Positions 23,818 through 25,635 of a stretch of 48,025 nt of DNA are shown piece after piece (the first letter of the stretch is position 1; every line of letters begins with the position of its first letter). The position numbers and the translations under genes are program-made. The notes under the pieces were generated by a model. It saw nothing but the letters and a program-made list of their open reading frames with translations. It was not told where the DNA came from and made no database searches. Location of the stretch: UHGV virus genome UHGV-0268865. One strand, written 5' to 3'. Origin of the DNA: a virus.

Positions 23818-25635
23818 TTAACCTCGTTTCAGTTTGCCAGCGGTCGGGAATGCTTTTTCGAACTCACTGACGGAAGCGGAATCCTGCGCAATGACAGGGC
23901 GTGAATTTTCTTTCTGGCTGATCGCCATTTTGACCATCGCCGGATAAGCGGACGGGTGAACGCCGGCGATATCCACACCGCTTTGCTCAAGCGCGGTGCG
24001 ATAGACATCTTCGGCTGAGTCCATGGCAACGACGTCGCCGATCAGCGGACGGACGACCAGCTCTGCTTCACGGATTTTCCGGAAGTTTTCCGCAGCCTTT
24101 TTAGTTGCGCTGTCGGCTGCCAGACGAATCGCAGAGTCCATCGCCGTTTTGGAGACTTTGTCGTCTTCTTCATCGTCTTCATCTTCGGCGGTTTTCTTCT
24201 TGTCCTTGTCTTCTTCGTCGTCTTCATCGTCCGCCGTTTTTTTCTTATCCTTCTCGTCGTCGTCTTCGTCGTCGGCGGGTTTGTTTTCTTTTTCGTCTTT
24301 CTTTTCGGCCTCATCAAGAGCCAGAAGAGCTTTGCGGACTTCTGCCTCCAGATCAGCATCCTGCGCCAGAAGTGGCTTAAGGGTGGCGCGGATCGCCTCT
24401 GCCTTATGTTTACGCATGTGGTTAAGCTCCGGTGGTAATGAATCTGCGACCAGTACATCTGGCCCTGCGCGGCCGTCAGGGACCAGCGCTTCGTGGTTTC
24501 CGAAAATGTCACGCATAACGCCGTCATAAGGCTCGCCGTCAGGAGTGACACCCGGGGTCATGTCTGCGACGTACTTGTACGATGCAGATAGCTCTCGCTG
24601 CTCTCCGCTCTCAATTCCAGCAATCGCGCTGTTATCCCAGATCGACATACCAACCGTGAGATACGTGCCGTCAAACTCCGCATTGGAGTGCGTCACGCCA
24701 ACACGAAATTCATTGGGTGGGTCGGTGGGAAAATCGGGGATGTGCTTGCTGAGCACGGGGATGTTATTGAAGGTTTTGGCTGCTTTCCGGAGCTCGTCCG
24801 GGTGGCGCCAAAGCCGGTAAAGCTTGTTTGGTTCGAGCCCAAGCTCTTCGCTTCTTGGTATCTCGCGTCCGTAGTATCCGTTGACGTTTGCCTTGCTGAT
24901 ATTCGTTCGTGAAATCTGAAGGCGGCCATTTGCGTCGATGGTGCGCACAGAGGCGCGGTCAAATGCCAGGCTTTCCGTAATCCCGTCCATTGCGGGTCTC
25001 TTTTCCTCGCTTATGTATCTGACCTTTATTGTCACCGGCTGCCCCGGTGATTTTGGGGGATGCACTCCAATCACTTCCATTTTTGCATTGCGTGGAAGTA
25101 ATGTTTCATCTTCATGCTTGTTGCTGGAAAGACCAGTAACATCCAGCCCCTTGTCACCTTTATTTGTTTCTATTTGGAGCATTACACCGCCGATGCTGAA
25201 CATACCGGCGATCTTTTTTTCTTTAGATGTGGAAAGAAAAGCAGGGTCTGAAACAACCATTCCTTTTTTAATATCTCCGCCTGGGAACAGTTTTTTTGCG
25301 TCCTCCCTGCTCATTCCTCGGTAAAGCGTTCCACCTTCTAAACTTCCCTTGCCAATGGCGGAGTCAATGCGTGCCACATCAGGGTCTTCATCTTTACCTT
25401 TACGAAGATCTGAGTTTATTTTTAAGAAATTGTCACCTGAGTAACTGGAAATGGCTGACTTTTCATTGGCTGATAGTTTTTCCCCGGCTGATTTCTTTTC
25501 ATTTTTATTACTATTAATCTTCCCTTCAGCGCCAGCAACAACATCTCCATTTTCATCAATTTTGACGTGGGAACCATTTATGGTTATCCACTTATCCTCA
25601 TCCTCGGCTAGCGAGTAGGATTCGAGTTCGTCCAT
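23818..25635 (-). CDS. Fusion protein: N-terminal R-S-E class ADP-ribosyltransferase domain, DUF2213-like prohead protease/scaffold core, acidic repeat linker, scaffold-like C-terminus
   Basis: ART triad in canonical order and spacing: LYRG (R106), FLSTS (135-137), EDETLL (E175/E177); the rest resembles prohead protease/scaffold proteins. Confidence 0.65.
24155..24290 (-). repeat. About 45-nt tandem repeat (x3) encoding acidic/lysine 15-aa repeats ([15 protein letters not shown])
   Basis: Repetition visible at both the DNA and protein level. Confidence 0.55.

Follow-up and report, generated by a model that had tools for sequence, protein, structure and literature searches.

The virus genome UHGV-0268865, analysed here as one stretch of 48,025 nucleotides (the window), encodes on its minus strand a protein of 605 amino acids (aa) in which an R-S-E type ADP-ribosyltransferase (ART) domain is followed, in the same reading frame, by a DUF2213 domain with a predicted prohead-protease fold and by a scaffold-like tail. 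The reading favoured here, in which we place a fair degree of confidence, is that of a cargo-carrier polyprotein: an arginine-type mono-ADP-ribosyltransferase, fused in frame to the N-terminus of a protease/scaffold, would be packaged in the head, released and injected into the next host, the release by the protease and the injection with the DNA being proposed by analogy with the Alt protein of phage T4. The domain order of the protein is leader, ART, prohead-protease-fold DUF2213 domain, acidic linker and helical scaffold-like C-terminus, with the following coordinates:

23818..25635, minus strand: whole gene, 605 aa (open reading frame list; Pfam PF03496 and PF09979)
25501..25635, minus strand: N-terminal leader, aa 1-45, acidic, with a motif at 25546..25590
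25006..25500, minus strand: ART catalytic domain, aa 46-210 (Pfam, model and Foldseek)
25318..25320, 25225..25233 and 25105..25113, minus strand: ART residues R106, S135-T136-S137 and E175-D-E177, respectively
24973..25014, minus strand: ART/protease junction, aa 208-221 (alignments; BLASTP and BLASTN breakpoints)
24439..24945, minus strand: DUF2213 / Pa193_gp24 domain, aa 231-399, with the candidate catalytic residues H298, S350 and H381
24160..24315, minus strand: highly acidic, lysine-interspersed low-complexity linker, aa 441-492 (62% D+E by composition count)
23821..24159, minus strand: helical C-terminal region, aa 493-605, the presumed coat-binding scaffold part

The transferase domain and its carrier

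An initial annotation of this DNA had claimed a complete ART catalytic triad within the N-terminal 200 residues (25035..25635, corresponding in the open reading frame list to aa 1-200 of the 605-aa frame), and the motifs, profiles, model and natural variants all agree with it. The motifs stand in canonical order and spacing, with L-Y-R-G at aa 104-107, F-L-S-T-S at aa 133-137 and E-D-E-T-L-L at aa 175-180; Pfam assigns aa 44-193 to PF03496 (ADPrib_exo_Tox; E=2.8e-18, 66.4 bits against a cut-off of 23.4) and also reports PF01129 above threshold in the 605-aa protein (22.8 versus 22.3), while phmmer against the sequences of the PDB retrieves ExoT (E=1.9e-5) and ExoS, with the Arg, S-T-S and E-x-E motifs aligned. 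For aa 1-219, an AlphaFold model based on 36 homologues reaches a mean predicted local distance difference test score (pLDDT) of 86, rising above 90 over aa 50-210, and Foldseek against the PDB returns solely ART toxins at probability 1.0 (E ~1e-11), the matches including the Listeria ART effector 8za7_B, Plx2a (5urp also listed), C3bot, Certhrax, ExoS, Vis and VIP2; the nearest predicted viral structures are annotated as portals, minor capsid/head morphogenesis (MuF) proteins and Alt-type ARTs. An ART fold is present in the structural prediction, and a chance match of the motifs is ruled out by the Pfam score, the alignment to PDB sequences, the fold and the conservation described below. Among the PHROGs, the best match of the N-terminus is phrog_595, the C-terminal ART of a MuF-ART family (E=3.4e-11); the ART end of phrog_21789, a family of virion structural proteins, is matched as well, and the Alt-like phrog_802 gives a weak, partial match (E=8.4e-7, aa 48-152).

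The ART domain is intact and conserved. The catalytic Arg, S-T-S and E-x-E are kept in homologues at 45-70% identity, and the same residues are retained in stand-alone and portal-fused homologues; across 115 distinct natural variants of 605 aa, R106, S135, T136, E175 and E177 are invariant and S137 differs in one, with 26 of the 215 ART positions being variable. On profile, motifs and predicted fold, the domain falls within the R-S-E ART class (PF03496; the C3/VIP2/ExoS/Alt group), and it appears to be a real domain that looks active. An E-x-E rather than a Q-x-E in the ADP-ribosylating toxin turn-turn (ARTT) motif is the mark of the arginine-specific type (iota, VIP2 and ExoS enzymes, as opposed to C3), and its presence here points to arginine as the acceptor.

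The rest of the protein had been likened to prohead protease/scaffold proteins, and this label can be retained. Pfam places PF09979 (DUF2213) on aa 231-399 (E=7.8e-47, 159.8 bits against a cut-off of 22), with no overlap with the PF03496 match, and the PHROGs family phrog_2229, 'head maturation protease', spans aa 219-604 (E=6e-167). A profile made from eight diverse DUF2213 domains matches one solved chain, the 'scaffolding protein' gp24 of phage Pa193 (9b40_G, E=1.6e-17). H298 and H381 are invariant in all eight diverse homologues, and S350, within 'E-L-S-x-x-Y', is kept or lies one column off in every one of them, Pa193 gp24 included; the order His...Ser...His is that of the assemblins, and H298, S350 and H381 are candidate catalytic residues of the domain. 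The fold of the gp21/assemblin prohead serine proteases was found for the DUF2213 domain as modelled; the carrier is a protein of this fold and a member of the Pa193 gp24 family. Neither the open reading frame list nor Pfam nor the relatives show a further protease or scaffold gene between portal and coat, and this lack of a rival, together with the DUF2213 evidence, supports the 'prohead protease/scaffold' label. The label goes beyond the current description of the DUF2213 family in Pfam and in the Pa193 study: DUF2213/Pa193 gp24 is here reassigned from 'putative scaffold' to a gp21-like protease fold with a scaffold-like tail. The gene sits between MuF and the cement and coat genes, as in related head modules; its C-terminal region is homologous to the C-terminal parts of the homologues P0042 and P0047 (see below), and aa 493-605 are presumed, by analogy, to be the part that binds the coat protein. 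Pa193 gp24 has been detected in mature virions by liquid chromatography-mass spectrometry, and its helix-turn-helix forms pentamers inside the five-fold vertices of the capsid (PMC11456595).

Carriers, leaders and the fusion junction

The strongest evidence for head packaging comes from the comparison of homologues, in which the same ART clade appears to have been swapped onto different proteins of the procapsid interior. An exhaustive HMMER search of 1.84 billion representatives yielded 1660 ART relatives, the closest clade being 45-59% identical, and the domain is found in the following arrangements:

P0006, P0010 and P0022: stand-alone ART of about 210-250 aa
P0042, P0052 and the frameshifted L014: ART N-terminal to DUF2213
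P0047, P0045 and P0053: ART-Nudix-DUF2213, followed by the scaffold, up to 1006 aa
P0054: ART-Nudix with a recognisable, more divergent protease-like segment, identified by eye
P0044: ART-Nudix
P0049: ART with a charged helical scaffold-like tail and without a protease domain (visual reading of the sequence, unscored)
P0041, P0043, P0050, P0051, P0058 and P0059: ART C-terminal to the portal; P0055, the same on a Mu-type portal
P0046: ART inside MuF

The forms carried by a procapsid-internal protein thus use the portal C-terminus, MuF or the protease/scaffold N-terminus, and since attachment of one ART clade to these three proteins has occurred repeatedly, selection for entry into the head would be its best explanation. 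The portal-ART form is present in the cultured Pseudomonas phage Orisa03, where it is annotated as hypothetical, and the stand-alone P0004 directly follows the MuF gene and lies two small open reading frames before the DUF2213 gene, in head modules of the same type (L009-L012). Some further arrangements may be mentioned. In the ART-Nudix polyproteins (P0047, P0045, P0053, P0054 and P0044), two NAD/ADP-ribose enzymes are united on one capsid carrier. In L009 (6708-6925), a stand-alone ART is followed by a 54-aa open reading frame and a strong terminator-like hairpin (GCCCGCCTCGCGCGGG then a T-run), which is the layout of a moron-like cassette. The stand-alone homologue P0009 (L013, 6001-6651, with a leader of the H-P-R type) lies on a 76-kb contig between a tail-fibre-like gene of 857 aa and genes of 315 and 1433 aa, a neighbourhood suggestive of a cluster of internal-virion or ejection proteins in another type of phage.

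Whatever the carrier (stand-alone, portal, MuF or protease), every close ART relative has one of two leader motifs, W-I-T...G-x-H-V-x-I-x-x-N-G or E-S-D-H-P-R-x3-G-K-F-G-S-G-G-G, about 60-75 aa before the catalytic Arg. The 605-aa protein carries the W-I-T...H-V-x-I type (25546..25590, minus strand), as do some stand-alone ART homologues; leader motifs are also present at L009 6043-6093, L013 6076-6105 and L015 3845-3874, P0047 has two copies, and none occur elsewhere in the window or in the 15 loci compared. AlphaFold gives the leader three short strands with a pLDDT of 66-78, and literature searches found no description of the motifs. A cleavable boundary between carrier and cargo is a poor fit, since the motif is at the extreme N-terminus of the 605-aa protein. 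It may tentatively be proposed, although we consider it rather doubtful, that the portal C-terminus, MuF and the protease/scaffold N-terminus are interchangeable docking slots of a protein-delivery chassis, the leader being a portable capsid-targeting or processing signal comparable to the capsid-targeting sequence of T4; in that case even the stand-alone ARTs would enter the capsid by means of the leader, and any chosen cargo could be directed into virions with its help.

How the fusion arose can be read from the closest relatives that lack the ART. The elements concerned are:

24980..25701, no strand: insertion of 722 nucleotides (nt) relative to the closest ART-less phages, comprising the ART coding part and the 62-nt intergenic spacer
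25662..25681, minus strand: terminator-like hairpin, an 8-bp stem then a TTTTTATT tail (pattern scan and sequence)
25698..26486, minus strand: MuF / SPP1 gp7-type head morphogenesis protein, 262 aa (Pfam PF04233, PHROG 324)

The closest cultured relatives are Klebsiella phages (RCIP0114, ST15-VIM1phi2.1 and others), and the similarity of these, and of six E. coli prophages, to the gene is confined to its 3' 1146 nt, where identity is 97-98%; the DUF2213 protein of the ART-less relatives, 389 aa long, is 99% identical to aa 220-605 (BLASTP start at aa 220). Against RCIP0114, BLASTN places the breakpoints of DNA homology at 24979 and 25702, with 722 nt here versus 25 nt there; the guanine-plus-cytosine (GC) content is 43.6% in the ART part of the insertion and 54.5% in both flanks, and the DNA of the ART cassette was found neither in 50,697 phage records nor in 5,426 complete E. 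coli genomes. From these comparisons the fusion is a recent, clean module insertion, with the ART apparently acquired as a low-GC cassette. The ART ends where its stand-alone homologues end (...V-R-V-A-Y-G-D-stop in the alignment), and M216, eight residues past the ART end, occupies the start-codon position of the ART-less relatives; because of these two coincidences, the fusion looks like an ART gene joined end-to-start to a protease gene. The hairpin, which belongs to the inserted cassette, is situated within the late head operon, past the MuF stop codon and ahead of the ART start codon, and is probably tolerated or read through under antitermination by Q (33276..33968).

The upstream MuF neighbour is an open reading frame of its own, in another frame, with a TAA stop and a distance of 62 nt to the ART gene (open reading frame list and sequence); the stop codon, the spacer and the different frame rule out a single long MuF-ART-protease polyprotein. 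A sequencing or assembly artefact, or a frameshifted fusion, is likewise ruled out by the exact protein in many independent assemblies and by the 115 variants of the same length. Indeed, the fusion is common in Klebsiella prophages: the exact 605-aa protein has index entries in 51 blocks of public assemblies, among them metagenomes and the Klebsiella genomes GCA_902166305.1 and GCA_902162365.1, and over 100 variants, 98-100% identical, were retrieved by a protein search; they belong to K. pneumoniae, K. variicola, K. quasipneumoniae, K. quasivariicola, K. michiganensis and K. grimontii, and some have been automatically annotated as 'Putative NAD(+)--arginine ADP-ribosyltransferase Vis precursor'.

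Proposed route through the head and competing explanations

According to the cargo-carrier proposal, the carrier would co-assemble with the coat protein inside the procapsid as part of the scaffolding core and, by so doing, would draw the fused ART into the head. Activation of the protease would then trim its own N-terminal region, in the manner of T4 gp21, freeing the ART and digesting the scaffold; the compact, folded ART of ~20 kDa would be too large to exit the shell and would remain trapped beside the DNA. At the next infection the enzyme would be expelled with the genome through the contractile tail and would use host NAD+ to ADP-ribosylate host proteins on arginine, ahead of all phage gene expression, the candidate targets being proteins of transcription, translation or defence. 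In T4, self-cleavage at the N-terminus activates gp21, which goes on to digest the core; trimmed Alt and the internal proteins are retained (PMC9958956).

Several considerations weigh against this proposal. A scaffold numbering a hundred or more copies would bring in much more enzyme than the ~40 Alt of T4, and late action of the ART within the producing cell is equally conceivable; moreover, the authors of the Pa193 study treat the DUF2213/gp24 family as scaffold only. An internal start at M216 might leave most scaffold copies ART-free; the Shine-Dalgarno-like GAGGA located 13 nt upstream of the M216 ATG has poor spacing, and a Met is present at this position in only some fusions. As for the release of the cargo, [IL]-x-E tripeptides, which are sites of the T4 gp21 type, occur six times in the protein, twice at the junction (aa 208-221); this pair is a weak lead as cleavage sites, and the junction tripeptides are not kept in other ART-protease fusions, being absent at the junctions of P0042, P0013, P0054 and others.

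The alternative that fares best, unlikely as we judge it to be, is that the enzyme acts late in the producing cell and is never injected, modifying host or phage proteins during assembly and so blunting late defences or regulating assembly, the fusion being an accidental loss of the stop codon between adjacent genes. The existence of stand-alone homologues as separate genes in the same late operon, because of which fusion is not required for expression, is in keeping with such a role, as are the near end-to-start junction, where the old start codon persists as M216, and the suggestion by Iyer et al. that ARTs of this kind might counter immunity aimed at the packaging apparatus (PMC9503650). 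Repeated independent fusion to three capsid-internal proteins, always pointing inward, is however difficult to ascribe to accident, and an accidental fusion would hardly persist, whereas the protein is exactly 605 aa long in 115 variants from at least five Klebsiella species.

It is very unlikely that the ART fold has been kept for a non-catalytic role, either as a pro-domain holding the protease inactive or as a space-filler of the scaffolding core, or that the domain is a mere NAD+ glycohydrolase. The position of the ART would suit a pro-domain, for the N-terminal region of T4 gp21 blocks the active site until it is cleaved (PMC9958956) and the ART occupies that same N-terminal position; nevertheless, ART-less relatives assemble with a 99%-identical protease/scaffold, so that no structural role is needed, and the NAD-binding and catalytic residues are invariant in the 115 variants while 26 other ART positions vary, the same residues being kept also in stand-alone and portal-fused homologues. 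Slimmer still is the case for an exotoxin or competition factor of lysogenic conversion, released on lysis to hit eukaryotic cells or rival bacteria like the phage-borne C3, cholera-like or Vis-type toxins, since the structural matches to bacterial exotoxins, the Vis precursor annotations and the pathogenic host genus are outweighed by the lack of any receptor-binding or translocation domain (Pfam gives only ART and DUF2213), an acidic N-terminus unlike a signal peptide (judged by eye), the covalent tie to an intracapsid protein encoded in a late operon downstream of Q, the relatives on portals and MuF and the fact that no immunity gene follows.

If the ART is packaged and injected, as the cargo-carrier proposal holds, common prophages of Klebsiella would alter host proteins ahead of any phage gene expression, with a possible influence on host takeover, on the lysis-lysogeny decision and on defence evasion in a clinically important genus. 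The question is directly testable, since natural phage pairs differ only by the ART module, their carriers being 99% identical. Furthermore, the covalent union of cargo, protease and scaffold would be an uncomplicated means, found in nature, of bringing a foreign enzyme into a capsid, which is of relevance to the engineering of phages for protein delivery.

Phage context and comparison with known systems

The window has the appearance of an entire temperate phage, about 48 kb long and equipped with a contractile tail of the E217 type; the same set of genes is found on a Logan contig of 48,055 nt. Among its products are a Dam methylase, an integrase, the antiterminator Q, a replication protein similar to lambda P, an HNH endonuclease encoded in the replication region and a CI-like S24 repressor, and NinG is also found in the early region. 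The relevant coordinates are:

135..686, 2946..4205, 33276..33968 (Q), 39941..40720, 41508..42083 and 42683..43375: genes from the Dam methylase to the CI-like repressor, as named above
26496..28442, minus strand: portal with a C-terminal Acb1 domain (Pfam PF06381 and PF23474)

The description of the virus as lambdoid, proposed in the initial annotation, holds for the early region (CI-like repressor, P, NinG, Q and integrase) and not for the virion module, which is that of an E217/Pa193-like myovirus. Nor is the portal add-on a second NAD/ADP-ribose-related enzyme, as had been suggested: the domain at the portal C-terminus is Acb1 (PF23474, E=8.2e-24), a cyclic-nucleotide phosphodiesterase directed against CBASS (cyclic oligonucleotide-based antiphage signalling system). 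No macro, ARH or Nudix gene is present among the 27 open reading frames of the window scanned against Pfam, some small ones lying outside the scan. The portal insertion (26444..26943) has a GC content of 46%, against 54% in the flanks, and otherwise near-identical prophages with the identical 605-aa protein have a portal of either 506 aa, without Acb1, or 648 aa; since the same protein occurs with either portal, Acb1 has been gained or lost independently of the ART and constitutes another cargo-type addition to this head module. A 2026 preprint reports that prohead proteases such as T4 gp21 activate CBASS (PMC12991175); in the present head module a gp21-fold protease and Acb1 occur together.

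Among the closest known systems is T4 Alt, which occupies the scaffolding core of the prohead in about 40 copies, is trimmed by gp21, remains in the head and enters the host together with the DNA (PMC9958956). Both are late-made ARTs of the R-S-E type, and T4-like Alt models are structural neighbours of the ART model; Alt, however, is a separate protein recruited non-covalently, whereas here the ART is covalently fused to the protease/scaffold, and the phage is a temperate myovirus of ~48 kb rather than a T4-like virulent one. An Alt orthologue is ruled out by the weak, partial phrog_802 match, by the different architecture and by tblastn (E<=1e-5), which matched 20 phage records, none of them T4-like. 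Of the initial description as an Alt-like capsid-delivered effector, the analogy is thus supported and orthology is not: the ART probably works like Alt without being its orthologue.

The ART is closest to those fused to MuF and to portals. The MuF-ART polymorphic toxins and polyvalent proteins, such as the EFV toxin of the Enterococcus faecalis V583 prophage, are ARTs of temperate phages for which co-delivery with the DNA has been predicted (PMC5576092, PMC5512222, PMC9503650). They resemble the present protein in that the ART is attached to a head-internal protein, in accordance with phrog_595 being its best PHROG; they differ in that MuF is here a separate 262-aa open reading frame without toxin domain, the ART is N-terminal and the carrier is the protease/scaffold. 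Pfam finds no MuF match in the 605-aa protein, which, MuF being a separate open reading frame, is not a MuF toxin. The portal-ART fusions (Orisa03 gp4, of 703 aa, P0041, P0043 and others) belong to the same ART clade, with 55-58% identity, and to an E217-like head module, but they employ the portal C-terminus, by which the dose is fixed at 12 copies per virion, in place of the protease/scaffold N-terminus, and carry the H-P-R-x3-G-K-F leader where the 605-aa protein has W-I-T...H-V-x-I.

As regards the carrier, neither Pa193 gp24 nor T4 gp21 has an N-terminal enzyme domain, and no protease fold was described for gp24 in the Pa193 study. In gpO of phage P2, an N-terminal serine protease and a C-terminal scaffolding region share one polypeptide, an N-terminal fragment of which is retained by the mature capsid; gpO is not known to carry effector cargo. 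Literature searches retrieved neither an account of an N-terminal ART on a DUF2213 protease/scaffold nor experimental work on such a fusion. MuF-ART toxins have been described (PMC5576092), and head-packaged ARTs fused to MuF or to the portal have already been predicted computationally (PMC9503650); the fusion reported here extends to a third type of carrier an idea already predicted from T4 Alt and from the MuF- and portal-fused enzymes.

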